The position numbers were made by a program, and so were the translations under genes. Below the pieces are notes generated by a model, which was given only the letters and a program-made list of their open reading frames with translations, was not told the origin of the DNA and did no database searches. Shown here one piece after another: positions 1 through 64,000 of a DNA stretch of 64,000 nt. Origin of the DNA: Thermoanaerobaculia bacterium (GTDB lineage: Bacteria > Acidobacteriota > Thermoanaerobaculia > Multivoradales > UBA5704); contig DATMZM010000208.1 in assembly GCA_035607445.1 (NCBI GenBank), forward strand, positions 1,286 through 65,285. Reading direction: 5' to 3'. Position 1 is the first letter of the stretch; the number at the start of each line of letters is the position of its first letter.

Positions 1-42251
<42,251 letters not shown>

Positions 42252-42255
<4 letters not shown>

Positions 42256-45200
42256 GCGTGGACGAACTAGCGAGCACCGGCTCGCTCTTCGACGAACAGC
42301 TGGCACTCTATGAGCAGCTGCTCGCGGAGGAAGGTATCGAAGCGCCCGAGAGCGAGAGCATTCCGCTTCGCCCGGCCGGCGAGGCCACGCCGCTTTCGTT
42401 TGCGCAAGCACGCCTCTGGTTTCTCGACCGATGGCAGCCGGGAAGTTTCAATTACAACGTCTACACCGCCTATCGGTTGGCCATCGCGATTTCGCCGTGT
42501 CTCCTGGCGGCGAGCTTGCGAGAGGTCGTCGGGCGGCACGAGGCCTTACGGACGACGTTTGCCGAAATCGACGGTCGACCGGTCCAGCTCGTGAATCCGG
42601 ACCTCGCAGCGCCGCTCGCGGTGGTCGAGCTCTCCTCACTGCCCGAAGCGAGGCGAGAGGCGGAGGCTCAGCGCCTGGCGACCGTGGAGGCGAGATGTCC
42701 CTTCGATCTCGGCCGCGGGCCGCTCCTACGCGTCACGCTCGTCCAGCTCGGCGGCAGCCTCTCGATTCTGTTTGCCGTAATGCATCACATCGTCTCGGAC
42801 GGTTGGTCGATGGGCGTTTTGATGCGGGAGATCGTCACGCTCTACCGTGCGTTCGCGGCGGGCTGGCCCTCGCCATTGCCGCCGCAGCCGATTCAATTCG
42901 GAGATTTCGCGGCTTGGCAGCGCCGTCGCCTCTCCGGCGAGCATCTCGAGGCCGAGATCGCGTGGTGGCGCGAGCGTCTCGCAGGTGCGCCGACCGTACT
43001 CGAGCTGCCGACCGATCGCCCGCGGCCGCCGTTGCAGAGCTTTCGGGGCGCCGTCCGCTACATCACGCTGCCGGTCGACTTGGTCTCACCGTTGCGGGCT
43101 CTCGGTCGAGAGGAGGGAGCGACCCTGTTCATGGTCCTCCTCGCCGGCTTGGCAATCCTCCTCGAGCATGCGACGGGCCAAGACGATCTTCTCGTCGGTT
43201 CGCCAATTGCGAACCGCAACCGGCCTGAGCTCGAAACCGTCATTGGATTCTTCGTCAACATGCTTGTGCTTCGAGTCGATCTCGCCGGCCGGCCGAGCTT
43301 CCGCGAGCTCGCCCGCCGCCAGCGTGAGGCGACCTACAGCGCCTACGATCACCAGGACATTCCGTTCGAAAAATTGGTCGAGGAGCTGAAGCCGGAGCGC
43401 GACCTGTCCCGCTCGCCGCTCGCTCAGGTTCTGTTCACTCTCCAGAATCTTTCCGCACTCTCGCGTGGCGGCGGTGGTGGCGACGACGCCGATGCCATCG
43501 CATTGTTACCGATCTCGAATGGCACCGCGAAGTTCGATCTCCTGATTGCCCTATCGGAAGTGGAGGGAGAAGCGGTAGGAGCGATCGAGTACAGCGTCGA
43601 TCTCTTCGACGCCGCGACGATCGACCGCTTTGCCACCAACTGGCAGATCCTGCTCGAGGGATTGATCCGCGAGCCGGATCGGCCTGCGGCAGAGATACCT
43701 TGCTTGACCGAGGCCGAGAGCCGAGCCCTCGCCTCGTGGGGCGCTCCACGCTTCCGCGCGCCGGCTTTTTGTCTCCACGATGGCTTCGCGGAGCAGGCAG
43801 CGAAGCGGCCGGATGCCGTTGCGATTTCCCTCGGAGCGGAGATCCTGACTTACGGCGAGCTTGCGGCTCGTTCGAGCGCTCTGGCGCTCTACCTCACCTC
43901 GCTCGGCGTCGAGCCCGGTGACCTCGTCGGGCTCTGCTTCGAGCGGTCGATCGAGATGGTCGTCGCGATTCTCGGAGCCTTGAAGGCCGGTGCGGCGTAC
44001 GTGCCCCTCGACCCGCACTATCCGCAGGAAAGACGCGAGCTTCTCGTTCAGGACAGTGGGGTTCGGGTCGTGCTCGCCCATGCGGGATTGGCCGAGAGTC
44101 TGCCGTCGCGCGGCGCACGCATGGTCACCCTCGACGAGGTTCGGTCCGGCTCCCAGCGTCGAGCAAGCATGCCTCTGGCGCAGGTCAGTCCGGAGTTTCC
44201 CGCTTACGTGATCTATACGTCCGGCTCGACGGGGAAACCCAAGGGTGTCACCGTGACGCATGCGAACGTCGCGCGTCTGTTCGCAGCGACGGACGAGTGG
44301 TTCGGCTTCGGCGAGAGGGACGTTTGGACGCTCTTTCATTCCTACGCCTTCGACTTTTCGGTCTGGGAGCTGTGGGGCGCTCTGCTCTATGGCGGGCGCC
44401 TGGTGATCGTGCCGTATTGGACGAGCCGTACCGCCGAGGAATTTCACGACCTTGTGGCGAATGAGGGGGTCACGATACTCAATCAGACTCCGTCCGCCTT
44501 CCGCCAGTTTGTCCGGGTGGACGAAGAGCGCCCTTGTGCCCTGCTCGCCTTGCGCTCGGTGGTGTTCGGTGGCGAGGCGCTCGATCTTGCGAGCCTCGGC
44601 CACTGGTTCGACAGACGAAGGGCGTCGAGCCCGCGCTTGATCAACATGTACGGCATCACAGAGACGACGGTGCACGTGACCTACCGCGAGTTGGCACCGG
44701 CGGACGTTCACCCCTGGGTGGGCACGCCGATCGGTGTCGGGATCGGCGACCTGACCGTGCGCGTGCTCGATCGGCGAGGTGAGAACACGGGGATCGGCAT
44801 CCCCGGCGAGCTTTCTATCGGCGGAGCGGGCGTGGCCAGAGGTTACCTCGGACGTCCGGAGCTGACGGCGGAGAAGTTCGTGCCCGATCCCTGGGGGGAG
44901 GCGGGCTCGCGCCGCTACCGGTCGGGCGATCTTGGGCGTTTCCGGGGCGATGGCGAGATCGAATACCTCGGGCGGATCGATCATCAGGTGAAGGTGCGCG
45001 GCTTCCGGATCGAGCTCGGGGAGATCGAATCGGCGCTCGCGAGCCATCCGGGAGTGCGCGAAGCGGTCGTCGTTTTACGAGGCGAGACGCTCGTCGGGTA
45101 TTGGGTTGGGCGCCAGGGAGAAGATCCGCCGGGGCGTGCGCTGCGCGAATTTCTTCTCGACCGCCTTCCCGAGCACATGGTGCCAGGCCGCTTGATGGAG

Positions 45201-48200
45201 CTGCCCGAGTTGCCGCTCACCGTGCATGGCAAGATCGATCGCCGTGCGCTGCCGGCGCCCGAAGGGCGTGACGCGGGAGTCGGCTACGAGGCGCCGCGAA
45301 CCGCGGTCGAAGAGGTGCTGGCTGGCGTTTGGAGCCGCGTGCTCGAAGTCGAGGTCGTGGGGGTCGGCGACAACTTCTTCGCGCTCGGCGGCGACTCGAT
45401 TCGCAGCCTGCAGGTTCTCTCGCTTGCACGGGAGCGGGGCTTGTCCCTTTCGGTCCAAGACATCTTCCGTCATCAGACGATCGCCGAGCTGGCCGTGCAG
45501 GCAGTCGGCACGGACGAAGTTGCGGCCGAGTCGGATGGCGGACCGTTCAGCCTGGTCTCCGACGAAGACCGGCGACTGCTTTCCGTACGCATTGCGGATG
45601 CGGAGGATGCCTATCCGCTCGCGCGGTTGCAAGCGGGCATGTTGCTCCATATGGCGCTCTCGCCGGACGAGCCTCCCTACCACAACGTCGATAGCTGGCG
45701 GCTGCGCGCCCGGCTGCAGCCCTGGGCTTTGCGGCGCGCTGCTCGGGAGGTGGCGGCGCGGCACCCGGCGATGCGCACTTCGTTCCATCTCGAAGGCTTC
45801 AGCGAGCCGCTCCAAGTCGTTCATCGCGAGGCGGCGTTGCCGATTTGGATCGCGGACTTGGGCGGATTGCCTCCCGCTTTTCGAGAGGGCGAGATCGCGC
45901 GCTATTCCCGCGGCGAGAAGGGGCATCTCTTCGAGCTCGGCCAATCGCCGCAATTGCGGTTCGTCATCCATCGGATCGATGGCGACCTGTTTCAGATGAC
46001 GATGACCGAGAACCATGCCATTTTCGATGGCTGGAGCCTGCACGCGACCCTACGGGAAATGTTCGGCCGGGCCTTCGATCTCCAGCGCGGCGACGAAACC
46101 CCCTTGCCCCCTCCTCCGCGTCTGACCTATCGGGAATTCGTGCGGCTCGAGCGCGAGATCGTCGCGTCGAAGGTAGCGGAGCGTTTTTGGGAAGACCAGC
46201 TTTCCGGGGCCTCCGTTCTTCTCCTGCCACGCCTGCGGACGGCACAAGAGGAAGGCGGTCCGCGCGTTCACGCGCAGGTCTTCCCGGCGCCCCCGGATCT
46301 CTCCGAGAGCTTGGAGCGCCTCGCCCTCGAAGTCGCCGTGCCCATCAAGTCCGTGATGTTGGCGGCCCACTTGCGCGCGCTCTCCGTCCTTACCGGCGCG
46401 ACGGATGTGATCACCGGCACCGTCTTCAACGGCAGACCCGAAGCGCCCGATGGAGCGGAAGTGAGAGGGTTGTTCCTCAACACCCTGCCGCTACGCGTCC
46501 AGCTGGGGGGCGGCACCTTCAGGCAGCTGATTCGAACGGCGTTCGAGGCGGAGCGGGAGCTTCTGCCAACCCGCCGTTTGCCGCTCGCAGAGCTGCAGAG
46601 GCGCCAGGGTGGCGGCGCCCTGTTCGAGGTTTTGTTCAATTACATCCACTTTCATGTCGTCGAGAGCTTGCTGCGATCAGGTGAGATTGAGGTTCTCGGT
46701 TTCGAAGGGCGCGAGGGAACGAACTATCCGCTGCACGTGGTCTGCACGCCCGGGCATCTCGACCGTGGGCTCAAGGTGACCCTCGAATACGATGCCGAGA
46801 TCTTCGGACGCCAGCAGATCGAGGCGTTCGGCGGTACGTACCTGCGAGTCCTTCAGGCGATGGCCGACGCCCCGGATGCGCGCTACGACGAGACCTCCTT
46901 GCTCTCTGAAGAGGAACGGCGACAGCTCCTCGTCCATCTGAACGCGACGGAACGAGCCTGGTCTCGCGAAGCGAAGGGGACCGTGCCCGCAGCGATCGCC
47001 GAGCGATCGCAGCGCGCTTCCGGCCGCGTGGCCGTCGTCTGCGGTGGAGAGGAGCTGACCTATGGGCAGCTCGTGCAGCGGGCGGATCGCCTGGCGTGGC
47101 TCCTCCGGCAGCTCGGTGCTGGCCGGGAGGTGCTCGTCGGGATTGCCCTCGAGCGGTCCCTCGCCCTCGCCGTCGGCACGCTCGGAGTACTCGCCACAGG
47201 CGCCGCCTACGTTCCGCTCGATCCCTCCTACCCAGCGGACCGGCTCAGCTTCATGGCCGAGGATTCGGGCGTCGCGGTATTGGTGACGGACGAGGCGATC
47301 GTCGACTGGCCCGGCTTCGCGGGCGAAGTCGTGCGGCTCACGACGGACGGTGTCCTCGTAACTTCCGCAGCCTGTGAGGGCGATTTATCTCTCGCGAGCA
47401 GCGCTCTGCCCGACAATCTGGCCTACGTCATCTACACCTCGGGTTCGACGGGGCGGCCCAAAGGCGTGCAGGTCTCCCATGCTGCGTTGTGGAATTTCCT
47501 TCAGTCGATGCTCGAGCGTCCCGGTTTTGTCGAGGACGATGTCCTCGTCGCGGTGACTTCGCTCTCGTTCGACATCGCCGGACTGGAACTCTATGGTCCG
47601 TTGCTCGCTGGCGCCCGCGTGGTGGTGGCGACCCGCGAGGAGACGACCGACGGCAAGCGCCTCGCCGCATTGATCGAAGCGAGCGGCGCGACGGTGATGC
47701 AGGCGACTCCCGCGGGGTGGCGTCTCCTCGTCGAGTCCGGTTGGCTCGGCTCACCGCGGCTCAAGGCCCTTTGCGGCGGTGAGGCGCTGGCTCCAGCGCT
47801 CGCCGCGACCCTCCTCGATCGAGTCGGTGAGCTGTGGAACCTCTATGGGCCCACCGAGACCACGATCTGGTCGACCATCGAACAAATCTCGAAGGCAGGG
47901 GACTTCACGATCGGTCTGCCCATCGCCAATACGCGAGTCTTCGTGGCCGATGCGTTCGGAAGGCTCGCGCCGGTCGGCGTTCCGGGCGAGCTTTGGATCG
48001 GCGGCACGGGTCTCGCGCGTGGGTACAAAGGGCGCCCCGACCTCACCGCCGAACGGTTCATTCCAGACGGTTTGAGTCCGAGTCCATCCGAGGTGGGCCC
48101 AGGCAGTGACGGTGGGCGGTTGTACAGGACAGGCGATCTCGCTCGCGTTCTGCCGGATGGGCGCATCGAATGCCTGGGCCGCCTCGACTCTCAAGTGAAG

Positions 48201-51200
48201 GTGAGAGGTTACCGAATCGAGCTCGGCGAGATCGAAGCGGTGCTCGGTGCGCATCCGGGAGTTGCCGCCGCGGCCGTCATCGCTTGGGATCTCGCGAGCG
48301 GCGACCGGCAGCTCGCGGCCTACGTCGTGCCCAACGGAGTTGAAGTTCCAGGGCACTTGGAGCTCGGCAGTTTTCTCCGCGAGCGCTTGCCGGACTACAT
48401 GGTGCCCGTCGTTTTCGTCGCGCTCGAGCGATTGCCTTTGACGCCCAATGGCAAGGTCGATCGCAAGGCTCTTCCCCGGCCGGCGGCGCGAGTGACCGCG
48501 GATTTCGTGGCACCGCGTACGCCCACCGAGGAAGTGCTTGCCGGTTTGTGGGCGGACGTGCTCAAGATCGATGGGGTCGGCGCTCACGATCGCTTCTTCG
48601 ACCTCGGCGGCCACTCTCTGCTCGCGACTCGGCTGGCTTCCCGCGTGCGCGAATCCTTCGGTGTCGAGCTGCCGCTACGCGTGCTGTTCGACAGCCCAAC
48701 TTTGGAGGGCTTCGCGGCGGCGATCGATACGGTTCTCGGGAACCCGATCGCCGCATTGGCACCGCCCCTCGTCAGGGTATCGAGGAACGGCGATCCACCG
48801 CTCTCGTTCGCCCAGGAACGCCTCTGGTTTCTCGACCGGCTTCAGCCCGGCTCCCCGGCGTACAACGTTCCTGCGGCAGTCCGCCTGACGGGCGACCTCG
48901 GCGTCAAGGCGCTGGCCGCGGCGCTCGACGAGGTCGTGCGACGCCACGAGTCATTGCGAACGACGTTTCGCATCGATCTGGGCCGCCCGGTCCAGGTGAT
49001 CGCTCCGGAGACCCAGTTCGCGCTTCGCCGGATCGACCTTGCCGGCCTGGATCTCGTTCGAACGGAAGGACACCTCAGCGATCTCGCCGCCCGCGAAGCG
49101 CTCCAACCGTTCGACCTTGCGACCGGCCCGCTCGTTCGAGCGACGCTGGTCTCGCTCGAGCGCGGCGAGCATGCGCTCCTTCTGACTCTCCATCACATCG
49201 TGTCGGACGCCTGGTCGATGGGAATTCTCGTCGCGGAAGTGGCACGGCTCTACGCATCGTTCGCGAGGGGCTTGCCGTCTGAGCTTCCGGCTCTTCCGGT
49301 TCAATACGCCGACTATGCCGTCTGGCAGCGAGAATGGCTCCGCGGCGATCCGCTCGCCGAACAGCTCGCCTATTGGCGTCGCATCCTCGAGGACGCACCG
49401 GTCTTGGTTTTGCCGGCCGACCGCCCGCGCGCGCCGCTCCAGAGTTACCGCGGAGCAAGCCGGCCACTCGGGATCGGCCGGCCGCTCGCCGAGCCGTTGC
49501 GCGCGCTCGGCCGCCAGCGCGGATCGACCCTCTTCATGACCTTGTTCGCCGCGTTCCAGGCGCTGCTGCATCGGCTCACCGGACAGGACGATCTCGTCGT
49601 CGGCTCGACGATTGCGGGACGGACGCACCGAGAGCTCGAGCCTCTGGTCGGTTTCTTCGTCAACGCTCTGGCGCTTCGCACCGACCTCGCGGGCGATCCG
49701 CCTTTCGATGCCCTCGTGGCCAGCGTACGGGAAACCGCTCTCGGCGCCTTTGCGCATCAGGACTTGCCGTTCGAGAAGCTGGTCGCGGAGATCCAGCCGG
49801 AGCGTGACCTCTCTCGCTCACCGATTTTCCAGGTGCTCTTTCAACTCCAGAACGCTCCCGCAGCTGCCCTGCCGAATGCCGGCATCGCGACTGGCGCGTC
49901 GGGGGTCGAGATCCGGCCGATGGGACAGGAAAGCCAGAGCGCGAAGTTCGATCTGGTGGTGACCGCCATGGATCGGGGCGGCGTGCTGTCCGGCGATTGG
50001 AAATTCAACACGGATCTCTTCGAGCCGGCGACGATCGAAAGGATGGCCGCGCGCTTCGAAAGGCTTCTGACCGCTATCGTCGCCGAGCCGGAGCGGCGAC
50101 TCTCGGAATTGCCGCTCTTGGGTGAGGAGGAGCGCGAGCAGCTCCTGGCGGAGTGGGGCGTGGCGACGGCCGTGTTCGAAACCTTCTGTCTGCACGAGCG
50201 ATTCTCCGCGCAAGCGGCCCTGCGGCCGGAGGCGATCGCCGTCAGCCTGGGTGATTCGGTGCTCACCTACGGTGCGCTCGAGCGGCAGGCGAACGCTCTG
50301 GCGAGCCGTCTCGAGAGCCTGGGCGTCCTTCCGGGCGATTTAATTGGGCTGTGCTTCGAGCGGTCGCTCGAGATGGTGGTGGCGGTCGTAGGTACTCTCA
50401 AAGCCAGTGCGGCGTACGTGCCTCTCGATCCTCAGTACCCGCAGGAGAGGCTCGCTTTCCTTCTCGAAGACAGCGGAGTCCAGATCCTTCTGACTCAGAC
50501 CTCATTGCTCGGTGCTCTCCCATCGCAGGGCGCCCAGGTGGTGACGCTCGACGACGGACGCCGCAAAGGCCTGGGCCAGGGAGGTGCAGGAGCGTCTGCT
50601 CCGCGCTCGTCAGCGTCGGAGCTTCCGGCGTACGTGATCTACACGTCGGGCTCGACGGGCCAGCCGAAGGGTATGGTCGTTACGCATGCGAACGCATCGC
50701 GGCTCTTCGTGGCGACGTCGCCGTGGTTCGGGTTTGGGCCCGAGGACGTGTGGACTCTGTTCCACTCGATGGCCTTCGACTTCTCGGTCTGGGAGCTGTG
50801 GGGTCCGCTCTTGTCCGGAGGCCGGTTGGTCGTGGTTCCGTACTGGTTGAGCCGTTCTCCCGCGGGCTTCTTCGACCTTCTGGCCGAGGAGCGGGTGACG
50901 GTGTTGAGCCAGACGCCGTCGGCATTCCGGCAACTGATCTGGGTGGACGCAGCGGCGGACCCCGCGGCTCTCGCATTGCGCGAAGTGGTCTTTGGAGGCG
51001 AGGCGTTGGACCTCGGCAGCTTGGCTCCCTGGTTCGCACGGCACGGCGATCGGCATCCTCGTCTGGTCAACATGTACGGGATCACCGAGACGACGGTGCA
51101 CGTGACGTACCGGCCTCTGCTCGCTGGGGACGTGGCGCGAGGGAGCGTCGTGGGGCAGGCGATTCCGGACCTGTCGGTGATCGTGATGGATCTGCAAAAC

Positions 51201-54200
51201 GGTCTGGAGCCGGCTCCGATCGGGGCTCCGGGGGAGATCTTCGTCGGTGGCGCCGGATTGGCGTTGGGCTACCTGGGCCGCCCGGAGTTGACGGCCGCAC
51301 GGTTCGTGCCCGACCCGTTCAGCGATAGGGGCGGCGAGCGCCTGTACCGTTCGGGAGATCGCGCGCGCCGCTTGGCGGATGGGGATTTGGAGTACCTGGG
51401 CCGGATCGATCATCAGGTCAAGATCCGGGGTTTCCGGATCGAGCTCGGCGAGATCGAGGCGGCGATCCTTGGCTTGCCGGGCGTGCGAGAGTGCGTGGTG
51501 CTAGCGCGCGCGGAGGCGAACGGTGAGACACGTCTGGTTGCGTATGCGGTAGGCGACGCGGTGCCCTCGCTCGCGGAGCTGCGGGCGGACCTGGCGGCGA
51601 GGTTGCCGGAGTACATGGTGCCGTCTGCGCTGGTCGAGCTGGCGCAATTGCCTTTGACGGCGCACGGCAAGTTGGACCGGCGGGCCTTGCCGGCTCCGGA
51701 GTGGACGCGTCCGGAGTCGGCGGAATCGGTGGCGCCGCGGACGGCTCTCGAGCGTTATTTGGCAGATCGCTGGCGCGAGGTGCTGGGGATCGAGCGCGTG
51801 GGCGCGGAGGGCGACTTCTTCGAGCTCGGAGGCAATTCGATCAGCGGCGCGGTCCTGATCAACCGCTTGCAGCAGGAGCTCGGCGAGATCGTACAGGTGG
51901 TGGTGATCTTCGATCGATCGCGGTTGTCGGATCTCGCGCGGTATCTCGAAGCGGAGCATCCGGCGGGCGTTGCGCGGCTGGTGGGCGCGGTGGGTGAGAC
52001 GCAGGAGCGATCGTCGTCGTCGCGGGTGGATGAAGCGAAGGTGGCTCTGCTCAAATCGCTCGTGCGTCCGCTCGCGCCGGCGAGCGGAGGGGAGTCGGTC
52101 AAGAATCCGCCGGTTCTGTTCGTGCTGTCGCCGCCGCGATCGGGGACGACGCTGTTGCGCGTGATGCTGGGCGGTCATCCGCGCCTCTTCGCGCCGCCGG
52201 AGCTGGAGCTGCTGTCGTATCGGACGATGTCGGAGCGCCGGGAGGCGTTTTCGGGTCGTGACAGCTTCTGGCTCGAGGGGGTCTTGCGCGCGGTGATGGA
52301 GCTGCGCGGGTGCGAGGTCGAGACGGCGCGCGAATTCGTCGAGTCGTGCGAGAGGGCGGGGATGACGACGCTGGCCTTCTACGGCGTGCTGGCTTCCGAG
52401 CTGGGCGACCGGATGCTGGTCGACAAGACGCCGTCGTACGCGCTCGATCCGGCGATCCTCCGTCGAGGAGAAGAGGAATTCGCGGGGGCTCGGTATCTGC
52501 ATCTGGTGCGGCATCCGGGCGGGATGGTGCGCTCATTCGAAGAGGCGAAGCTGGATCAGGTGTTCTTCCGCCGGGAGCACCCGTTCGAGCGCCGGGAGCT
52601 GGCGGAGCTGATCTGGGACGTGAGCCAGGAAAACATCCTGGAGCTCTTGGCGGACGTTCCTCGAGAGCGGCAGCATCGGGTGGTGTTCGAGGATCTGGTG
52701 CGGGACCCGGAAGGGGTGCTGCGGGGCGTGTGCGCGTGGATGGGTCTCGAGTACGCGCCGTCGATGGCAGCGCCGTACGAAGAGGTCTCGTCGCGGCGAA
52801 TGACGGACGGCCCGCACGCGGCGTCGCGAATGTTGGGGGACGTGAAGTTCCTCGGCCACGGAGGAGTCAAGGCCGAGGTGGCGGAAGGCTGGCGGGAGGA
52901 CCTCGCGGAGGGAGACCTCGGCGCGCCGACGTGGGACCTCGCGGAGAGGCTCGGCTACTCTCGGAGGGTCGAGAGCCGGGAGCGGTGGGAGGCGATCCCT
53001 GCCGGATTGAGCGTTGTAGAAGGAGAAGCCCCGCTGTCGTTCGCGCAGGAGCGATTGTGGTTCCTGGATCAGCTGACGCCGGGCAGCGCGGTGTACAACG
53101 TGCCGCTTGCCCTGCGTCTGAAGGGTCACCTCGACGTCGCGGCGATGCGGGTTGCCCTGACGGGAGTGGTCGCCCGGCACGCGGTGCTGCGCACAACCTT
53201 CGGCGCGGTGAATAGCCGGGCGGTGCAGCGGACCGGCGGCATCGAGCCGTTCCCCTTGCATTGCGCGGACCTGAGGTTTCTGCCGGTTCGGGAGCGCGAG
53301 GGGGAGGCGCGGCGGTTGGCGACGGCGGAGGCGCGGCGACCGTTCGACTTGGCGCGGGGTCCGGTCGCGCGGGGCCTGGTGGTCCGGTTGGCGGCGGAGG
53401 AGCAGGCGGCGGTCTTGACGCTACACCACATCGTCTCAGACGGCTGGTCCTTGGGCATCCTGGTCCAGGAGCTGGTCGCTCTCTATGGCGCGGCGCTCGC
53501 GCGGGAAGCGGCGGAGCTGGCGCCTCTCGCGGTGCAGTACACGGACTATGCGGCGTGGCAGCGGACGTGGCTCGCCGGTGAGCGTCTGGAGCGGGAGCTC
53601 GGCTACTGGACGGATCGGCTGGCGGGCGCGTCGCGGCTCGCTCTGCCGACCGATCGCCCGCGGCCGCCCGTGCAAACGTTCCGCGGCGCGAGCCGTGGGG
53701 TGCGCCTGGCTCCGGACCTCGCGAAGCGCTTGGAAGAGGAATGCCGCCGCGAGGGCGCGACGGCGTTCATGGGTCTCGCGGCGGGATTCCAGGCTCTGCT
53801 GCACCGGTGGAGCGGCCAGGACGACGTGCTCGTGGGCACACCGATCGCGGGCCGCACGCGCGCCGAGGTCGAGGATCTGATCGGGCTGTTCGTCAACACG
53901 CTGGTGTTGCGAACCGGATTCGACGACGGCCCGAGCTATCGCGAGCTGCTCGGACGGGTACGGGCCGGGGCGGTGGCTGCCTACGCGCATCAGGAGGTGC
54001 CGTTCGAAAAGGTGGTCGAAGCTCTCGCGCCGTCGCGGGATCTGTCGCGCTCGCCGATCTTCGAGGTGATGTTCGCGGTGCAGAACGCGCCGGTCGTGGC
54101 GTTCGAGCTGCCGGGTCTACAGCTCGCGCCCTGGTCTCTCGGCGAGCCGCTGTCGAAGTTCGATCTGACGTTGACGCTGTCGCCGGAGACTCTGGCGGGT

Positions 54201-57200
54201 GGGTTCGAGTACAACCGCGATCTGTTCGATGCGGCGACGATCAGCCGGCTGGGTTTGCAGCTCGAACGGCTGCTCGGGGGCTTGCTCGCGCACCCGGAGG
54301 TGCCGGTGGACGAGTTGGACCTATGGAGCGCGGCGGAGCGGCATCAGGTCGAAGTCGAATGGAACGCGCGGCCGTGGAGCTACGCGGGGGAGATCTGCCT
54401 GCACGAGAGGTTCGAGCGGCAGGTGGACCGGGATCCCGCCCGCACGGCGGTAGTGCCAGGTTTGGCGGGGGAGGACCCCTGGAGCTACGAGGAGCTCGAA
54501 GCCTGCTCGAATCGAGTCGCGCACTACCTGCGGCGGCACGGCATGACCGCGGGCGATCGGGTGGGCTTGTGCGGGGAGCGTTCGCCGCGTCTGGTCGCGA
54601 GCCTGTTGGGGATCTTGAAGGCGGGTTGCTCGTACGTGCCGCTCGATGCCGAGTATCCGCCGGAGCGCTTGGCGTTTTTGGTGGCGGACTCCGGCGTGCG
54701 GACGGTCATCGGCCAGCAGGCCTTCCGGGAGCGGATTGCTCTGCCGGAGCGAGTGCGGTGGCTGTCTCTGGAAGAGGAGTGGGAAGGGATCGGTCGCGAG
54801 AGCGCTTTACGTCCGCTGTGGAGTTTGGGACCGGGGTCCGCGGCGTACGCGATCTATACGTCGGGCTCGACGGGGGTGCCGAAGGGAGTGGTGGTGCCGC
54901 ACCGGGCGATCGCGAACCGGGTGCTGTGGATGCAGGAGGCGTATCCGCTGACCGTCGAAGACCGTGTTCTGCAGAAAACTCCCTGGAGCTTCGACGCGTC
55001 GATCTGGGAGCTGTTTCTGCCGCTTTCGGTGGGCGCGGAGCTGGTCCTGGCGGAGCCGGGTGGTCACCGGGACAGCGGGTATTTGGTCCGAGCCGTCACG
55101 GAATATCAGATCACGGTGTTGCAGCTGGTGCCGTCGATGCTGCAGGCGTTTCTCGAAGAGCCGAGCGCCTCGAGCTGCACGAGCTTGCGGTATCTGTTTG
55201 CGGGAGGCGAAGCGCTCTCGGGCGCTGTCGCTCAGCGGCTGGCGAGCCGTCTGCCGGCGGTGGAGCTGGTGAACCTCTATGGTCCGACGGAAGCGGCGAT
55301 CGACGTGGCGTCGAAGCCTCGCGTGGGATCCGAGACGCGGGCGGTGGTGCCTCTCGGTCGGCCGATCTCTTGCGTGCACCTGGCGGTGATGGATCGGATA
55401 GGGCGGGCGGTGCCGATCGGCGTCGCGGGGGAGCTGTGGATCGGCGGGGTGAACCTGGCCTTCGGCTACCAGGGGCGCGCGGACTTGACGGCGGAGCGGT
55501 TCGTTGCGGCTCCCTGGTCGAGCGGGGGCGAGCGGGCGTATCGAACGGGAGATCTGGCGCGTTGGCTGCCGGGAGGCGAGCTCGAGTACCTGGGCCGGAT
55601 CGATACGCAGGTGAAGGTACGGGGAGTGCGGATCGAGCTGGGTGAGATCGAGGCGGCTCTGTCGGCGCATCCGGGGGTGGCGCAGACGGCGGTGGCGGTT
55701 CGGGGAGCGGACAGCGGCCGGCGCCTGGTGGGGTATTGGGTGGGCCGGCAGGATCTGCGCGTGACGGCGGAGGAGCTGCGCGCGCACGTGGCGCGGCGCC
55801 TGCCGGAGGCGATGGTGCCGGGCGTGCTGATGGAGCTCGAGGCGCTGCCGGTTCTGCCGAACGGCAAGGTGGATCGCAGCGCTCTGCCGGAGCCGGAGGC
55901 GATCGCCGGAGGAGGCGAAGCGCCGCGCACAGTGGTGGAAGAGGTGCTGGCGGCGATCTGGTCGGAGGTGCTGGGTCTCGAGCAGGTGGGAGTGGAGTCG
56001 AGCTTCTTCGATCTCGGGGGCCATTCGCTGCTGGCGACGCGGGTGGTCTCGCGGATTCGGCAGGCGCTCGGGGTGGATCTGCCGGTCCGGTCGGTGTTCG
56101 AGCGTCCGACGATCGCGGGTCTGGCGAGCGAAATCGGGCGCCGGAGAGACGCGGGGTCGAAGACGCCGCCTTTGCTTCCGGTCGAGCGGAGAGGTGCGCT
56201 GCCGGCGTCGTTTGCTCAGTCGCGGCTGTGGTTTTTGCATCAGCTCGAGCCGGAGAGCGTGGCCTACCACCTACCTCTGGCGCTGCGGCTCGAAGGCGAC
56301 TTGAACGTCGGTGCCCTGGCCGGAGCCTTGCTGGAGATCGTCCGCCGGCACGAGGTGTTGCGGACGAGATATCCGGAGCATCCGGAGCGGGACGGCGAGC
56401 CGATGCAGGAGGTGCTGCCGGCCGGGTGGGTGAAGCTGCCGCTCGTCGATTTCGGGCAGCTGCCGATGGTCGCACGCGATGCGGAGTCGCGGCGGGTAGC
56501 CGGCGCGGAGGCGGCGCGGCCCTTCGATCTCGAGCGGGGTCCGCTGTTTCGGAGTGCCTTGTTGCGTCTGGGCGTGAACGATCATCTCGGCCTCCTGACG
56601 CAACACCACATCGTCTCGGACGCCTGGTCGCGCGGCATTCTGATTCGCGAGCTCTCGGCGCTTTACGGTGCCGCTCTCGCCGGCCGCCCGTCGCCGCTCG
56701 TCGAGCTACCGGTCCAGTACGCGGACTACGCAGTCTGGCAGAGATCCTGGCTCACGGGAGAGGTGCTAGAAGCGCAGCTCGGCTTCTGGCGCGAACGGCT
56801 CGCCGGGGTGCCCCAGGCGCTCGACCTGCCGACCGACCGGCCGCGGCCGCCGGTGCAGAGCTTCAGGGGCGCCTCGCGGCCGGTCACGATTGCGGCCGCG
56901 ACGGCGAACGGCCTCAAGGCTCTCGCGAGGCGCGAGAGCGCGTCGCCGTTTATGGCCTTTCTCGCCGGCTTCCAGGCTCTCCTCTGTCGCGCGGCGGCTC
57001 GATCTGAGGTGCTCGTCGGCTCGCCGATCGCGAACCGTGAGCGCCTCGAAGTGGAGGGACTGATCGGCTTTTTCACCAACACGCTGGTGCTGCGCGGAGG
57101 AATCGAGAGCGGCGAGGGCGGAACCGGTCTCCGCGATCTCGTCGGCCGTGCACGCGAAACCGTGCTCGGCACCTCGGTGCACCAGGATCTGCCCTTCGAG

Positions 57201-59513
57201 AAACTCGTCGAGGAGTTGAAGCCCGAGCGCGACGCATCGCGCACGCCCTTGTTCCAGGTTCTGTTCACTCTCGTCCCGGCGCCGGAATCAATCGCCCTCT
57301 CGGGTCTCGAGGTGCGGCCGTTCGGTGCTGCGGGGACGACGGCGAAATTCGATTTGTCGCTGGCGCTGACCGACGCGCCGAACGGTGTGACGGGTGCCTT
57401 CGAGTACGCGACGGCGCTCTTCGACCCGGCGACGGTCGAGCGGTTTGGACGGCACTTTGGCGTGTTGCTCGCGGCGGCGGTCGCCGACCCCGAAGCGGAT
57501 CTGCGGATGCTCCCTCTGCTCGCTCCGGCGGAGAGGCACCAGGTTGCGCTTGCTTGGAACGATACCGGCCGCTCGCTCGAAACGGCGCGAACGATCCACG
57601 AGGCGATCGAGGCGCAAGTCGACCGGACGCCGGATGCGATCGCGCTCCGATTCGAGGGCGAGCAGCTGAGCTACGCGGAGCTGGATCGACGGTCAAACCG
57701 GTTGGCTCACCATCTGCTCCGACGGGGCGTCTCGCGCGAGAGATTAGTCGGCCTTGCGCTCGAGCGCTCGCTCGATCTGCTCGTCGCTCAGATCGCGACC
57801 TGGAAAGCCGGCGGGGGGTACGTGCCGATCGATCCAAGTTATCCGGCCGAGCGGCTCGCGGCGATGCTCGCGGACGCCCGGGTATCTGCGTTGATCACGC
57901 GCTCGACGCTCGTCGATCGGCTTCCGGTAAAGCCCCCGGATGATCGGAAGCCCGAGGCTCCGATCGTTTGGCTCGACCGCGACGCTGCGGCGATCTCGGC
58001 GGAGCGCGAGGTGCGACCCGGGCTCGAGGTGCTACCGGAGCAGCTGGCGTACGCGATCTTCACGTCAGGATCGACCGGCCGCCCGAAAGGAGCGATGAAC
58101 GAGCATCGAGCCGTGCTCAATCGGCTGCTCTGGGGCGAGACGACATTCGGGTTCGATGCTCGCGATCGATTCATCCAAAAGACGCCGTTCAGTTTCGATG
58201 TCTCGGTGTTCGAGCTCTTCGGCCCCCTGTTGTGTGGCGCGCGGCTGGCGCTCGCGGTGCCGGGTGGGCATCAGGATACATCGTACCTGGCTCGGTTGTT
58301 GGCGGAGGAAGGGGCGACGACGGTGCATTTCGTGCCGTCGATGCTGCGGACATTCCTCGACGAGGCGGAGCCTTCGACCCTGCGGAGTCTGCGTCGGGTG
58401 ATGGCGAGCGGAGAGGCTCTGCCAGCCGCGCTTTCGGATCGTTTCTTTGCACGGCTTTGCCCGGGTGGCGCCAAGAGCGCGAGCGATGCCATCGCAACGA
58501 TCGAGCTGCACAATCTGTACGGACCGACGGAAGCCGCGGTCGAGGTGACACACCAACCGTGCCGTCCGGGAGCCCGTGCGATGTCGATCGGGCGACCGGT
58601 GGCGAATACCCGGATTCACCTGCTGGACCGGGAGATGGCGCCCGTACCGATCGGGCACGCAGGCCAGCTCGCCATCGGCGGAGGACAGGTCGGGCGCGGC
58701 TATCTCGATCGCCCGGAGTTGACGGCGGAGCGTTTCGTGCCGGATCCATTCGGAGGGCCGGGGAGTCGGCTCTACTTGAGCGGCGATCTCGCGCGGCATC
58801 GCGCCGAGGGTTCGATCGAGTTTCTGGGCCGCACCGACCAGCAAGTCAAAGTGCGCGGCTTCCGTATCGAGCTCGAAGAAATCGAGTCGGCCTTGACCGA
58901 GCATCCGAAGATCCAACAGGCCGCGGTGGTGGCGAGCGGCGACGACGAGCAGCGTCGCCTCGTCGCTTACGTGGCGTTCGTCGGCGAGCAGGTGCCGCTC
59001 GCGAAGATGCGCGAGCATCTCCGGCGCCGGCTGCCGGAATACATGATTCCGTCGCTGTTTCTGGAGCTCAAGTCGCTGCCGTTGACGGCGAGCGGCAAAG
59101 TGGATCGGCGGGCGCTACCCGCGCCGTCGCGATTGCAGCAGCAGCTCGAGAAGACCTACGTCGCCCCGCGCAACGCGGTCGAAGAGGTGCTCGCGGGGAT
59201 CTGGGCCGACGTGCTTGGCATCGGACGAGTCGGCATCGAAGACGATTTCTTCGATCTTGGTGGCCACTCCCTGCTCGCCACTCGCGCGGTCTCGCGGGTG
59301 CGCAAGATCTTCCGCGTCGATCTACCGCTGCGGAGCTTCTTCGGCGGGACGACCGTGGCGCGGCTCGGGCAGGTTCTTCTCGACCATGAAGCACAGCCCG
59401 GGCGGACCGAGAAGGTCGCGCGGCTCTTCCGCAACGTCGAGTCCATGAGCGAAGAGCGGATGCGCGAGTTGCTCGCGAAGAAGCGGAGCGATCCGGAACC
59501 CGGCGAAAAATGA
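42252..59513 (+). CDS. Nonribosomal peptide synthetase with 5 modules: C-A(Thr)-T, C*(variant)-A(Gly)-T, C-A(Thr)-T-ST, C-A(Gln)-T, C-A(Ser)-T. Has an N-terminal docking head and a C-terminal docking tail.
   Basis: The 5753-aa ORF has a TTG start at 42252 (alternative in-frame GTG at 42258) overlapping the gene 1 stop as TTGA. A GAAAGGA RBS lies at 42239-42245, 6 nt upstream. The N-terminus MSVDELASTGSLFDEQLALYEQLLAEEG leads straight into C1 motif [15 protein letters not shown]. A3 cores are near 44204, 47424, 50630, 54843 and 58048. The stop is at 59511-59513. Confidence 0.95.
42380..45510 (+). other. Gene 2 module 1: C-A(Thr, DFWNVGMVHK)-T(GGDS, E-domain-type PCP signature).
   Basis: [25 protein letters not shown] and [10 protein letters not shown]. 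A domain carries [92 protein letters not shown] and TVHGKIDRRALP. PCP motif [24 protein letters not shown]. Confidence 0.85.
45545..46960 (+). other. Variant condensation-family domain C* (gene 2 module 2 C position). C3 motif reads NHAIFDGWS (first His replaced by Asn) and the N-terminal motif reads [14 protein letters not shown].
   Basis: [36 protein letters not shown]...[22 protein letters not shown]...[21 protein letters not shown]...GLFLNTLPLRVQL...[13 protein letters not shown]. It shows no sequence similarity to the 16 standard '[10 protein letters not shown]...HHIVSD(G/A)WS' C domains in the window. About 55-60% aa identity to the gene 3 copy. Confidence 0.7.
46961..48740 (+). other. 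Gene 2 module 2: A(Gly, DILQLGLIWK)-T.
   Basis: A domain carries [74 protein letters not shown] and [12 protein letters not shown]. PCP motif FFDLGGHSLLATRL. Confidence 0.8.
48785..52990 (+). other. Gene 2 module 3: C-A(Thr-like, DFWSVGMVHK)-T(GGNS)-ST.
   Basis: [26 protein letters not shown] and HHIVSDAWS. A domain carries ...[54 protein letters not shown] and TAHGKLDRRALPAP. PCP motif FFELGGNSISGAVLINRLQQ. ST domain 3 spans 52010-52990. Confidence 0.85.
52010..52990 (+). other. Embedded sulfotransferase-like (ST) domain 3, between PCP3 and C4 of gene 2.
   Basis: KNPPVLFVLSPPRSGTTLLRVMLGGHPRLFAPPELELLSYRTMSERREAFSGRDSFWLEG...LVDKTPSYALDP...YLHLVRHPGGMVRSFEEAKLDQVFF...MTDGPHAASRMLGDVKFLGHGGVKAEVAEGWRE. 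Paralogue of ST2. Confidence 0.75.
53020..56150 (+). other. Gene 2 module 4: C-A-T, predicted Gln (DAWQFGLIDK, exact Gln code).
   Basis: [25 protein letters not shown] and [9 protein letters not shown]. A domain carries [55 protein letters not shown] and LPNGKVDRSALP. PCP motif FFDLGGHSLLATRV. Confidence 0.8.
56185..59390 (+). other. Gene 2 module 5: C('AYHLP' subtype)-A-T, predicted Ser-like (DVFHMSLVEK).
   Basis: LPASFAQSRLWFLHQLEPESVAYHLPLALRLEGDLN and QHHIVSDAWS. A domain carries [42 protein letters not shown] and TASGKVDRRALP. PCP motif FFDLGGHSLLATRA. Confidence 0.8.
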
Positions 59514-59640
59514 GCGACCTCGGATCGGGCCGTAAGGCGGAGCTGTCGATGGACCGCCTGGAGCTGCTCGAGCGCATGCTCGAGGAGGAGGGTCTGTTCG
59601 ACGACGCCGTGGACTCGGCGGACGCCATCTTGCCGCGTCC
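59391..59640 (+). other. Gene 2 / gene 3 junction: C-terminal docking-like tail, ATGA overlap, and N-terminal docking-like head.
   Basis: Tail ...LLDHEAQPGRTEKVARLFRNVESMSEERMRELLAKKRSDPEPGEK*. Head [47 protein letters not shown]. Both are paralogous to the gene 1 / gene 2 junction elements. Confidence 0.6.
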
Positions 59641-62600
59641 CTCCGGCGAGCCCGCGCCCCTTTCGTTCGCGCAGGCTCGCCTCTGGTTTCTCGACCGCTG
59701 GCAGCGCGGCAGCTGGGCTTACAACTTGTTCGGAGCCCAGCGGTTCACGATCCCGATCGAGCCACGGCTCCTCGCCGCCAGCTTCAACGAGGTCGTCCGC
59801 CGCCACGAATCGCTGCGTACCACGTTCACCGAAATCGACGGGAAGCCCGTCCAGAGCGTGGCGGCACAACTTCGACTGCCACTGCGCGAGATCGATCTCG
59901 GCGTGCTGCCGCGAGCGATCGCCGACGGGGAGGAGCGGCGCGCTCTCGGCGCCTGCGCTCGGCGGACGTTCGATCTCGAGCGGGGTCCTCTCCTCGCGAC
60001 CGAGCTCCTGCGGCGAGAAGGAGCCGGCAGCGTTCTTCTCGCGACGATGCACCACATCGTGTCGGATGGCTGGTCGCTCGCCGTCCTCCTCCGGGAGGTT
60101 CTCGCGATCTATCGGTCGCTCGCACGAGGCCGAAGCCCGCGCTTGCCGCCGATCCCGATTCAATACGGGGACTACGCCGCCTGGCAGCGGCAACGGCTCT
60201 CGGGAGAACGGCTCGAGGCGGAGATCGCCTGGTGGCGCGCGCGCCTCTTCGGCGCGCCCACCCTCCTCGAGTTGCCCGCTGACCGGCCCCGGCCTGCCGC
60301 GCAGAGCTTTCGCGGCTCCGTACGGCCGATCCGGCTCGACGATCGTACGGCGGACAACCTGCAGGCCTTGGCGCAGGCGGCAGGGGCGACGCTGTTCATG
60401 GCTCTGCTCGCAGGCTTCGCGGTGCTCCTGCGCCGCTACACGGGCCAGCGGGACTTGCTGATCGGCTCGCCGATCGCGAACCGCAATCGACCCGAAGTCG
60501 AAAACCTGATCGGCTTCTTCGCCAATACCCTCGTCCTGCGGGTGCGGTTCGCGGGCGAGCCCGGCTTTCGCAACCTTCTCGCCCAAGTGCGCGACGAGAC
60601 CTTTGCGGCTTACGAGCATCAGGACATTCCGTTCGAGAAACTGGTCGAAGAACTGAGGCTCGGCCGCGATCCCTCCCGCCAGCCGCTTTGCCAAGTCGTG
60701 TTCGCGCTCCAGAACGCGCGCGCCGAGACGGAGGTGGCGAGCAACGGTCCGCGTCCGGTCGCCGAGGCGCTTCCCATCGACAACGGGAGCGCAAAATTCG
60801 ACCTCCTGCTCAGCCTCGCCGAGACCGCCCAGGGCGTGCAGGGCGGGATCGAGTACAGCTTGGACTTGTTCGACGCCGCGACGATCGACCGCATGGCGGC
60901 GCACTTGGACCGCCTGCTCGGCGCGCTCGCCCTGCGGCCCGATCGCCCGGCCATCGAAGCGCCTCTCCTCACCACGGAAGAAATGCGCCAGATCTCGGCG
61001 TGGAGCGAGCCGCGCGGCAAGGGGCGGACGTTCTCGCTGATCGAGCGATTCGCGGAGCAAGCAACGACGAGGCCCGACGCGATCGCTGTTTCTCTCGCCA
61101 GCGAGCAGATGACGTATGGAGAGCTGTTGCGCCAGGCGAACGAGCTTGCGCTCCGCCTCGCGATCCTTGGCGTCGCTCCCGGCGATCTCGTCGGCCTCTG
61201 CTTCGAACGCTCGACCGCGATGGTGGTCGCGATCCTCGGTACCTTGCAAGGCGGGGCCGCGTACGTGCCGCTCGATCCTCATTACCCGCAGGAACGATTG
61301 TCGTTCCTGCTCGAGGACAGCGGAGTGGGGATTCTCCTGACCCAAGCATCCTTGGCCGAGAGGCTGCCCGCTCATGGAGCGCGGGTCATTACGCTCGATG
61401 ACCTGCGCTCCACATGCCGGGGATCAGGAGACAGCAGCAGCCCGCCATGTCAGATCTCACCGGAGTTCCCGGCTTACGTGATCTACACTTCCGGTTCGAC
61501 GGGGAAGCCGAAAGGCGTTGTGGTGTCACATGCGAACGTTGCGCGGCTTTTCGCGGCGACGGACGCGTGGTTTTTCTTTGATGAGCGGGACGTCTGGACG
61601 CTGTTCCACTCGACCGCGTTCGACTTCTCCGTCTGGGAGCTGTGGGGCGCTCTCCTCCATGGCGGACGGCTGGTCGTCGTGCCGTACTGGACGAGCCGGA
61701 CCGCGGAGGAGTTTCACGAGTTGGTAGTGCGCGAGGGGGTGACGGTGCTCAATCAGACGCCATCGGCCTTCCGCCAGTTTGCCACTGTGGACGAAGAGCG
61801 CGCGGGAGCACCGTTTGCCCTGCGCTCGGTGGTGTTCGGTGGCGAGGCTCTCGACCTCGCGAGCCTCGGCCCGTGGTTCGACAGGCGGGGCGATGAGCGG
61901 CCGCGCTTGGTCAACATGTACGGCATTACCGAGACGACGGTCCATGTGACCCATCGCGAGCTCGCCGCCGCTGACATTCGCGGCTGGGTAGGAACGCCGA
62001 TCGGGAAGCCGATTCCGGACCTCTCCGTGCGGGTGCTCGATCCGAGAGGGCAGGTGGCCCCGATCGGTGTTCCGGGCGAGCTTTGCATCGGCGGCGCGGG
62101 CGTTGCGCTTGGGTACCTCGGCCGTCCGGCGCTGACAGCGGAGCGCTTCGTTCCCGATCCTGCAGGCGAAACGGGCGGTCGACTCTACCGCTCCGGCGAT
62201 CTCGGGCGCTTTCGGGGCGATGGAGAGATCGAATATCTCGGGCGGATCGATCATCAGATCAAACTGCACGGATTTCGGATCGAGCTCGGCGAGATCGAGG
62301 CGGCGCTCTTGAGTTGTCTAGGCGTGCGCGACGCGGTTGCGGTGCTGCGCGACGAGATGCTCATCGGCTACTGGGTCGGACCGACCGAAGGAACGTTTCC
62401 GAGCAGCGAGGAGCTCCGCAAGCACTTGCGCGACCGGCTCCCCGAGTACATGGTGCCGGGACGTTTGGTTGCGCTCGAATCGTTACCGCTCACCGCTCAC
62501 GGCAAGGTCGATCGAAAGGCATTGCCGGACGTTGCGGGGCGAGACGAGGCGGTCGGGTTCGAGCCGCCACGGAACGAAGTCGAAGAGGTGCTCGCCGCGG

Positions 62601-64000
62601 TCTGGAGCCGTGTGCTGGGTCTCGAAGAAATCGGCGTGCGCGACAACTTCTTTGCGCTTGGCGGCGATTCGATTCGAAGCCTGCAGGTGGTTTCTCTCGC
62701 TCGCGAGCGAGGGCTTTCGTTCACCCTCCAAGACCTCTTCAGCTTTCAGACGGTTTCGGAGCTCGCGGAGCACGCGGAGAGGACCAGCGCCGAATCGGTC
62801 GTTGCCGAGGGCGAACCCTTCGAAATGATCTCGGCGGAAGATCGACGGCGTGTGGAGCAGCGAGTGCCCGGAGCCGAGGATGCCTATCCTCTCGCTCGCC
62901 TCCAGGCGGGAATGCTGCTGCACATGACGCTCGCGCCGAGCGATCCGCCCTACCACAATGTCGACAGCTGGCGTTTACGCGCGCGTTTCCACGCGCGGGC
63001 GCTCGAAGTTTCGCTCGACGAAGTGGCCAGGCGCCATCCGGCTTTACGCACGTCATTTCATCTCGAAGGCTTCAGCGAACCGTTACAGGTTGTGCATGCG
63101 GATGTCGCCGTACCCTTTGGCGTCGCGGACCTTCGCGGGCTCGTTTCGGCGGCGCAGGAGCGAGAGATTCGGCGCTACGTCCGTGCCGAGAAAAGGCGTC
63201 TCTTCGATTTTACACACGCGCCCCAGCTGCGCTTTTTCATCCATCGCTGTGGAGAGACCGCCTTCCAGCTCACGGTGACCGAAAACCACGCGATCCTCGA
63301 CGGCTGGAGCCTGCACGCGACGCTCGAGGAGATCTTTGCCCGATACCTCGACCGCATCGCCGTGTTGCCGATGCAGCCGAAGCCGATGCCGCCGCCGCCA
63401 CGGTTGACCTTTCGCCAATTCGTGCGCGCGGAGCGCGAGATGCTCGCTTCGGTGGAAGTGGGCAGGGTTTGGGATCGGCTTCTCGAAGGCGCTTCGCTCC
63501 TCGTTCTGCCGCCGCTTCCCAGTGCGCTCGACCGCCGCGAGCCGCGCGTGCGGAAGCGCGTTTTCCAGGCGCCGCCCGCTGTGACGACCGGGCTCAGGCG
63601 CTTTGCGCGCGAAGCCGCGGTTCCGATCAAGAGCCTTGTCCTTGCGGCGCATCTGCGGGTTCTGTCCGCATGGGGCGGTACGACCGACGTGATGACCGGG
63701 CTGGTTGCGAACGGGCGCCCGGAAGTCCCCGAGGGCACAGAGGTGCGCGGCCTCTTCTTGAATTCTCTGCCTCTGCGCCTCGATCTCGGCGGGGGCACTT
63801 GGAGCGATCTCGCTCGAACGGCGTTTCGCGCCGAGCGCGATCTCGTTCCGACGCGGCTCTATCCGCTCGCCGTGCTTCAACAGCGCCATGGCGGACCCTT
63901 GTTCGAGGTGCTGTTCAATTACATCCACTTCCATGTCGTCGAGGGATTGCTTCGTACCGGCGAGATCGAAGTGCTTTCGTTCGATGGGCGCGAAGGCACG
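59510..64000 (+). CDS. Nonribosomal peptide synthetase, 3'-partial (runs off window end). Domains: N-dock, C, A(Thr), T(GGDS), then a variant C* domain that is truncated by the window.
   Basis: The ATG at 59510-59512 overlaps the gene 2 stop as ATGA. Read in frame 2 it gives [32 protein letters not shown]...[25 protein letters not shown] with no stop to nt 64000. HHIVSDGWS is near 60046, the A3 core near 61476, the PCP GGDS near 62670 and C* '[14 protein letters not shown]' near 62882. This gene is absent from the ORF track because it lacks an in-window stop. Confidence 0.9.
   Translation, partial: [1497 protein letters not shown]
59640..62790 (+). other. Gene 3 module 1: C-A(Thr, DFWNVGMVHK)-T(GGDS).
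   Basis: [25 protein letters not shown] and [10 protein letters not shown]. A domain carries [92 protein letters not shown] and [12 protein letters not shown]. PCP motif [24 protein letters not shown]. Confidence 0.85.
62815..64000 (+). other. Variant condensation-family domain C*, second copy (gene 3), 3'-truncated by the window. C3 motif reads NHAILDGWS.
   Basis: [36 protein letters not shown]...[22 protein letters not shown]...[21 protein letters not shown]...[13 protein letters not shown]...[34 protein letters not shown]. Confidence 0.7.

Follow-up and report, generated by a model that had tools for sequence, protein, structure and literature searches.

Sulfotransferase domains embedded in elongation modules of a nonribosomal peptide synthetase from uncultured Acidobacteriota: predicted on-line O-sulfonation of threonine

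The closest described relatives of the domains reported here are the sulfotransferase (ST) domains of CurM and OLS (structures 4gbm and 4gox). They lie in termination modules of polyketide synthases (PKSs), sit directly after a carrier domain and act on a beta-hydroxy thioester, and in CurM a characteristic thioesterase (TE) follows and removes the sulfate by decarboxylative elimination. This study concerns three such domains, ST1, ST2 and ST3, in a nonribosomal peptide synthetase (NRPS) of a Thermoanaerobaculia bacterium (Acidobacteriota; assembly GCA_035607445.1, contig DATMZM010000208.1). They are encoded in a stretch of 64 kb, which was analysed as a whole and is called the window. Like CurM and OLS, the window STs directly follow a carrier domain, are predicted to meet a beta-hydroxy thioester, and share the family, the fold, the loops that bind 3'-phosphoadenosine 5'-phosphosulfate (PAPS) and the equivalents of Arg39, Glu60 and Lys133. 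They differ in that they are found in NRPS elongation modules, their predicted acceptor is an amino acid side chain, His62 is replaced by Glu, and an ordinary condensation (C) domain follows in three of three cases. On-line O-sulfonation of carrier-bound threonine is the best reading of this arrangement.

Two other systems link sulfonation to an NRPS. In the Oci cyanopeptolin synthetase of Planktothrix, an ST built into the NRPS modifies a hydroxy acid on its carrier, and the product keeps the sulfate (PMC2533009). The Oci domain belongs to the loading region, where its substrate is glyceric acid, and the likeness drawn here to the window STs is one of architecture. In the sulfazecin pathway, SulN uses PAPS to sulfonate a peptide that has not yet been released from its NRPS carrier (PMC11298585), but it is free-standing, works in trans and N-sulfonates 2,3-diaminopropionate (Dap), and the sulfamate is then used in beta-lactam formation by the TE. 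Threonine O-sulfonation in methanobactins and the tyrosylprotein sulfotransferases (TPSTs) leave a sulfate ester on a peptide hydroxyl, as proposed here, although these enzymes are free-standing and modify ribosomal peptides or proteins post-translationally, on substrates that are not tethered as thioesters. The last comparison is with the dehydrating C domains of the C_modAA/DHC class (AmbE-C2, McyA2-C, AlbB-C2 and AlbB-C3), which are the established path to dehydroalanine (Dha) and dehydrobutyrine (Dhb) in nonribosomal peptides, AmbE-C2 being biochemically proven (PMC10880069). They act on carrier-bound donors of the Ser/Thr type just downstream of the loading module, and McyA2-C is placed immediately downstream of the module that forms N-methyl-dehydroalanine (Mdha). 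However, they use no sulfate or cofactor, and the C domains that follow the STs in the window are not of this type.

Identity of the embedded sulfotransferase domains

Exactly three Sulfotransfer_3 domains are found in the window by Pfam, each with a carrier (T) domain ahead of it and a C domain behind it. ST3 belongs to module 15 of the second synthetase gene. The preliminary description, made from the letters of the DNA, had placed a third in-line ST at 52010-52990, and the core that aligns with CurM falls within that interval (Table 1). The T domain, ST3 and the C domain are read in frame in one open reading frame (ORF), in the order C-A-T-ST-C, where A stands for the adenylation domain.

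ST3 matches the CurM ST with an E value of 9.3e-62 over query residues 51-340 and the OLS ST with 9.5e-57, at 38-42% identity to the two. Its AlphaFold2 (AF2) model has a pLDDT of 90 and was aligned by Foldseek to 4gbm with a TM score of 0.88/0.92 and an rmsd of 2.5, and to 4gox with a TM score of 0.85/0.92. The next-best fold matches are TPSTs, with a TM score of only about 0.6. Judged by sequence and model, ST3 is a real and close homologue of the CurM ST and a member of the CurM/OLS "activating" ST family. Its sequence, fold and catalytic residues are those of the family, whereas position 62 and the surroundings depart from the His62 and the carrier-ST-TE tridomain of CurM and OLS.

When the three window STs were aligned with 40 relatives (L001-L031), the PAPS loops, PxRSG[ST]T for the 5'-phosphosulfate-binding (5'-PSB) loop and RHP for the 3'-phosphate-binding (3'-PB) loop, were conserved, as were the equivalents of Arg39, Glu60 and Lys133 in the same 43 proteins. 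The residue roles in the CurM ST reportedly come from McCarthy et al. in 2012, with Glu60 as the proposed base or catalytic residue. His62 of CurM and OLS (PPELHLL) is replaced by Glu (PPELELL) in 43/43 NRPS-embedded STs. This exchange was considered as a marker that would distinguish STs followed by a C domain from those followed by a TE, and it was rejected because Glu is present in both contexts.

ST2 and ST3 are paralogues. As the preliminary description had it, ST3 lies inside a duplicated block of three modules, in which 31613-42104 and 48799-59362 share 78.5% nucleotide identity over 10.6 kb. The two STs have 91% protein identity and a dN/dS of 0.16, which is as low as that of the A and C domains. 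The ST is thus under purifying selection no looser than theirs, and together with the intact catalytic residues this value argues against the ST being a relic. The recently shared core of the duplication is A-T-ST-C-A-T (dS 0.3-0.43), and the first C domain and the third module of the block are older (dS 1.0-1.4). A-T-ST-C-A-T appears to be a natural exchange unit.

Acceptor residue and carrier domain

Specificity codes (Stachelhaus codes) of the A domains were read by alignment to GrsA-PheA, and the GrsA control gave DAWTIAAICK. The residues given for codes outside Thr, Ser, homoserine (Hse), aminoadipate (Aad), Asp/Asn and Arg are our own assignments. Those for Thr, Ser, Hse, Aad, Asp/Asn and Arg follow PMC12283262. 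All three window STs come after a Thr-type module, so the sulfated or dehydrated Thr that had been proposed is a reasonable prediction.

The association extends to the relatives. Strict Ser/Thr codes precede the ST in 26 of the 33 scorable cases. At other positions, 9 of 68 A domains have them (Fisher p 1.3e-10 for the difference). The other seven pre-ST domains comprise three with DLWHLTLVEK, one homoserine-type, two Tyr-like and one diaminobutyrate (Dab)-like. In addition, the STs group by the acceptor of their own module, with the window STs in the Thr group. The T domains are also adapted. The signature GG[NSTH]S-I-[ST]-G-A-x-x-x-N-x-L-Q is common to 40/40 T domains that precede an ST in the relatives; ordinary T domains lack it and have GGHSLLATR instead. 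The T domain ahead of ST3 reads GGNS, as had been noted. This coupling to Ser/Thr modules, the clustering by acceptor and the T signature together indicate an ST acting in cis, whose target would be the side-chain hydroxyl of the residue that its own adapted T domain carries.

The T domain of module 9 carries the ST-partner signature after a Thr-type A domain, with no ST behind it. Orphan T domains of this type are also seen in relatives, at 17075 in L019, where a Ser module precedes, and at 3161 in L028. Such a T domain has either lost its ST or is served by the ST of a neighbouring module. The latter would agree with a different target for the ST, namely another residue of the tethered chain, the residue of a neighbouring module or the released peptide, as would the few relatives in which an ST follows a module that is neither Ser nor Thr. 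Such a target, or an inactive relic, is improbable in our estimate. The strength of the Ser/Thr association and the grouping of STs by the acceptor type of their own module speak against the former, and the selection on ST2 and ST3 described above against the latter.

The nearest STs have at most 69% identity and are all found in metagenome-assembled genomes (MAGs) or metagenomic contigs; the labelled ones belong to the Acidobacteriota (Thermoanaerobaculia and Holophagales), and the ST-bearing NRPS arrangement was found in uncultured soil Acidobacteria only. A near-identical cluster was not found, the best ST identity being 69% in genome contigs, 63% in metagenome contigs and 66% among 5.8 billion proteins. 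The flanks of every relative locus contain NRPS only. Throughout the 40 loci the ST comes after an NRPS T domain. What follows is usually a C domain, and in roughly one case in five a terminal TE. Three successive ST-bearing modules are present in L004 (1247-10855), one of them after a homoserine-type A domain (DLKNFGTDVK), and two successive ST modules in L009, L011, L016, L019, L021 and L022.

The preliminary description had further proposed that behind every ST come a Gln module and then a Ser module, so that the modified Thr (Thr*) would stand in a fixed Thr*-Gln-Ser context repeated along a periodic, possibly polyanionic peptide. The Thr and Gln codes of modules 15 and 16 fit this unit, and the code of module 17 fits Ser only weakly. 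The rule is limited to the copies of the duplicated block, since ST1 is followed by the Ile/Val-like module 6 and by module 7. Thr*-Gln occurs twice in the window and once in L003, and the context of ST1 is different. The motif is present only twice because three modules are duplicated, which does not make the peptide periodic. Two modules are Arg-like (DVENIGAITK and DIEDLGAITK) and only one is of the Asp/Asn type. The product, as read from these codes, is not periodic and not obviously polyanionic. In L003 (665-13467, from a Thermoanaerobaculia MAG), the order of window modules 15-18 is repeated: Thr-ST, Gln, X, and a Thr module whose T domain reads GGDS. L003 is probably a homologous cluster with a different third residue (DLDTYGAVAK). 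The local context may matter, because Thr*-Gln followed two modules later by Thr with a GGDS T domain is also found there.

Fate of the sulfate

The proposed process would begin with the A domain, which would load Thr on the dedicated T domain of the special type. The T domain would then offer the thioester-bound Thr, in aminoacyl or peptidyl form, to the ST. ST1, ST2 and ST3 would be active PAPS-dependent O-sulfotransferases of the CurM/OLS family, fused into NRPS elongation modules, and would move the sulfate from PAPS to the Thr side-chain hydroxyl. Finally, the T domain would hand the sulfated residue to an ordinary C domain of the L-donor type, by which it would be coupled to Gln. The analysis shows what the domains are, that their active-site residues are intact, that they are under purifying selection and that they are coupled to modules for hydroxy amino acids. 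Which atom accepts the sulfate, when it is transferred and, most of all, what then becomes of it are inferred.

The C domains that follow STs keep HHxxxDG intact and are scattered among other C domains in a neighbour-joining (NJ) tree of 107 C domains. The best matches of the C domain after ST3 (C16) in the PDB are Txo1/Txo2, TycC6 (4e-73) and L-donor C domains of the FscG type, and AmbE (1.9e-18) and McyA2 (4e-16) follow far behind. C16 falls outside the AmbE-C2/McyA2-C clade, and the C domain of module 14 falls inside it. A special clade or signature for post-ST C domains was also sought by mutual information and a Lys/Arg column test and was rejected, the best value being 0.26 bit.

Retention of the sulfate ester is the outcome that we tentatively favour, at a little short of even confidence; it would give O-sulfo-Thr at modules 5, 10 and 15 and Dhb at the Thr residues served by dehydrating C domains. 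It is favoured because the post-ST C domains are ordinary and the ST has no specialised partner, and because the TE that follows the ST in the relative L008 is ordinary rather than of the CurM type. Moreover, STs in relatives also follow one Hse-type, two Tyr-like and one Dab-like module, in which alpha,beta-elimination is impossible. The known NRPS-linked sulfonations of Oci and SulN keep the sulfate, and sulfonated Thr exists and is stable in methanobactins.

The TE in question belongs to the A(Ser/Thr)-T-ST-TE termini of NRPSs that are seen in L008 (14438-16087), L020, L024, L025, L028, L029, L030 and L039. The L008 TE was the one tested, and it is of the ordinary NRPS type (AB3403, 4e-27), with no CurM TE among its matches. 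CurM-like ST-TE logic at the NRPS ends of the relatives was rejected on this result. The options at such termini include a C-terminal residue that keeps its sulfate, an enamide formed by decarboxylative elimination, and a lactone or lactam.

Several points weigh against retention. The two characterised members of the family, CurM and OLS, use the sulfate as a leaving group, and a thioester alpha-proton beside a beta-sulfate is primed for elimination. O-sulfo-Ser and O-sulfo-Thr are not known to us from any nonribosomal peptide. C_modAA domains were not seen in the 40 relative loci, and therefore the ST route might stand in for them there to make Dha and Dhb. The arguments for retention are also indirect, drawing on the missing specialised partner, the co-occurrence of C_modAA domains and a few atypical acceptors, whose codes in the relatives are partly our own assignments.

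These points lead to the alternative of cryptic activation, in which the Thr sulfate would be lost on the thioester, spontaneously or by base catalysis within the ST, and Dhb would be passed on by the ordinary C domain. The ST-TE pair of CurM and lanthipeptide dehydratases, which work by phosphorylation or glutamylation and elimination, are parallels. The base may possibly be the Glu that takes the place of CurM His62, whose presence in every NRPS-embedded ST aligned could mean a second base. The "activating" ST family fits this alternative, as do the position of STs mainly after Ser and Thr, from which Dha and Dhb derive, and the failure to see C_modAA domains in the 40 relative loci. The fold-search list also includes retinol dehydratase and LGS1, which sulfonate and then lose the sulfate with no partner enzyme. 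Nevertheless, we consider cryptic activation unlikely, though it deserves serious weight. The relatives with Hse-type and Tyr-like modules and the missing elimination partner count against it. In CurM, the sulfated beta-hydroxyacyl-ACP is said (Gu et al., in 2009) to be stable until the TE acts, which also counts against elimination on the thioester. A 2023 review of dehydroamino acids gives no sulfation route (PMC10880069).

The dehydrating C domains of the window itself are a further objection. Two C domains of the C_modAA/DHC type, in module 14 and in gene 3, replace HHxxxDG by NHAIFDG and NHAILDG (Table 1). Both come after Thr modules (13 and 18) with GGDS T domains and no ST. They are far nearer to cyanobacterial McyA2 than to any other C domain in the window or the relatives. 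Dhb is predicted at modules 13 and 18 on the basis of these motifs and matches. The preliminary description had overlooked these domains, which bear on the purpose of the ST. Dehydrating C domains already provide a route to Dhb at two further Thr residues of this enzyme, and a second one by the ST would be redundant.

The sulfate could also leave by substitution, with the alpha-amine giving a methyl-aziridine, or with a carbonyl or side chain giving a ring or a cross-link. An aziridine is formed by sulfation and displacement in the vazabitide and ficellomycin pathways. This outcome would agree with the activating ST family, and the Hse-type module followed by an ST in L004 would fit gamma-substitution chemistry. 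However, the search for domains turned up no extra one that could guide a substitution, and the C domain downstream is of the ordinary type. Substitution is given a low probability, and retention of O-sulfo-Thr is kept as the preferred outcome.

Layout of the synthetase and wider meaning

The window is a single NRPS assembly line, encoded entirely on the plus strand by three genes (Table 1). Four-base overlaps at both gene junctions, 42252-42255 (TTGA) and 59510-59513 (ATGA), suggest translational coupling of the three synthetase genes. Hidden Markov models (HMMs) made from the window's own domains gave 19 full or partial modules, every one C-A-T. No separate epimerization (E) or TE domain was detected among the 19 modules by the HMM scan, and genes 1 and 2, which hold 17 C domains, contain no match to the dual E/C motif HH[ILV]xxxxGD. 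Minus-strand ORFs at 59156-63934 were judged spurious because they have no Pfam match and overlap gene 3. The code of module 7 is nearest to DPRHLALLAK (aminoadipate) and DPRHVSLLAK (Asn) among the codes of PMC12283262, and the same or a similar code is also present in L031, L038, L040 and L041. The G+C content declines stepwise, from about 0.74-0.76 (nt 1-12000) to about 0.70 (12000-28000) and about 0.65-0.69 (28000 on). The GC skew has strongly positive stretches at 34-40 kb and 50-56 kb, where the ST-C-A(Gln) parts of the duplicated block lie. The stepped G+C content and the skew pattern suggest modules of mosaic origin.

Table 1. Genes, modules and domains of the window. Residues are predicted from A-domain codes; Ppant, phosphopantetheine.
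Feature	Position (nt)	Strand	Code or motif	Residue or remark
Gene 1	1-42255	+		Open at nt 1; continues past left window edge
Gene 2	42252-59513	+		
Gene 3	from 59510	+		ATG overlaps gene 2 stop (ATGA); continues past right window edge
Module 0			DLFNNALTYK	Ala-like (presumed); no ST after
Module 1			DVENIGAITK	Arg-like; no ST after
Module 2			DLTKVGHVGK	Asp/Asn; no ST after
Module 3			DAWFLGHVVK	Leu-like; no ST after
Module 4			DIEDLGAITK	Arg-like; no ST after
Module 5			DFWNIGMVHK	Thr; ST1 after
Module 6			DAFFLGVTFK	Ile/Val-like (branched-aliphatic type); no ST after
Module 7, A domain	23251-24777		DPRHLVLRAK	Aminoadipate/Asn-like; no ST after
Module 8			DILQLGLIWK	Gly; no ST after
Module 9			DFWSIGMVHK	Thr; no ST after
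Module 10			DFWSVGMVHK	Thr; ST2 after
Module 11			DAWQFGFIDK	Gln; no ST after
Module 12			DVFHMSLVEK	Ser-like; no ST after
Module 13			DFWNVGMVHK	Thr; no ST after
Module 14			DILQLGLIWK	Gly; no ST after
Module 15, A domain	50211-51671	+	DFWSVGMVHK	Thr (among the Thr codes in PMC12283262); ST3 after
Module 16, A and T domains	54420-56129	+	DAWQFGLIDK	Gln type; no ST after
Module 17, C-A-T	56202-59372	+	DVFHMSLVEK	Ser-like, tentative; no ST after
Module 18			DFWNVGMVHK	Thr; first module of gene 3; no ST after
ST1, Pfam core	17695-18342	+		Gene 1, module 5; after GGNS T domain
ST2, Pfam core	34906-35553	+		Gene 1, module 10; ST3 paralogue in duplicated block
ST3, Pfam core	52110-52757	+		Gene 2, module 15; PF13469, E 1.6e-26, above Pfam cut-off
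ST3, CurM-aligned core	52092-52961	+		
ST3, PSB loop	52131-52151	+	PPRSGTT	
ST3, Glu60 region	52194-52214	+	PPELELL	Glu60 equivalent kept (gene 2 Glu3318); Glu at CurM His62 position (gene 2 Glu3320)
ST3, further motif	52419-52439	+	VDKTPSY	
ST3, further motif	52503-52523	+	VRHPGG	
T domain of module 9	31303-31485	+	GGSSITGAVLVNRLQ	ST-partner signature; Thr-type A; C domain directly after, no ST
T domain of module 15	51759-51941	+	GGNSISGAVLINRLQ	ST-partner type; Ppant serine 51837-51839
C domain of module 14	45615-46928	+	NHAIFDG	C_modAA/DHC type; McyA2 8jbr 1.2e-95, AmbE 7r9x 6.8e-53
C domain of module 15	48798-50144	+	HHIVSDA	Ordinary
C domain of module 16	53031-54350	+	HHIVSDG	Ordinary; after ST3
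C_modAA-type domain, gene 3	62888-64000	+	NHAILDG	Cut by window end; identified by shared motifs only

In the full-text literature searched, which was mostly without subscription journals so that a prior account is possible, neither an ST within an NRPS elongation module nor a sulfation-dependent formation of Dha or Dhb was described. Either outcome would be chemistry new to nonribosomal peptides. Retention would make these peptides the first from an assembly line to receive O-sulfo-threonine or O-sulfo-serine in cis. Loss of the sulfate would make the ST a second, cofactor-driven (PAPS-consuming) and previously undescribed route to dehydroamino acids. That cryptic activation with sulfate loss is widespread in uncultured Acidobacteriota, with dehydroamino acids or a strained ring as products for which no dehydrating C domain is needed, is a real possibility that falls somewhat short of probable.

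The window would serve as an internal control for this question, as some of its Thr residues are treated by an ST and others by a dehydrating C domain in the same enzyme. The A-T-ST-C-A-T segment would be a compact unit for engineering. The A(Ser/Thr)-T*-ST module type, where T* is the adapted T domain, recurs in at least 40 loci of uncultured Acidobacteriota, and hardly any natural products are known from this phylum. The recurrence of the module type with a dedicated T signature makes it usable as a marker for genome mining.

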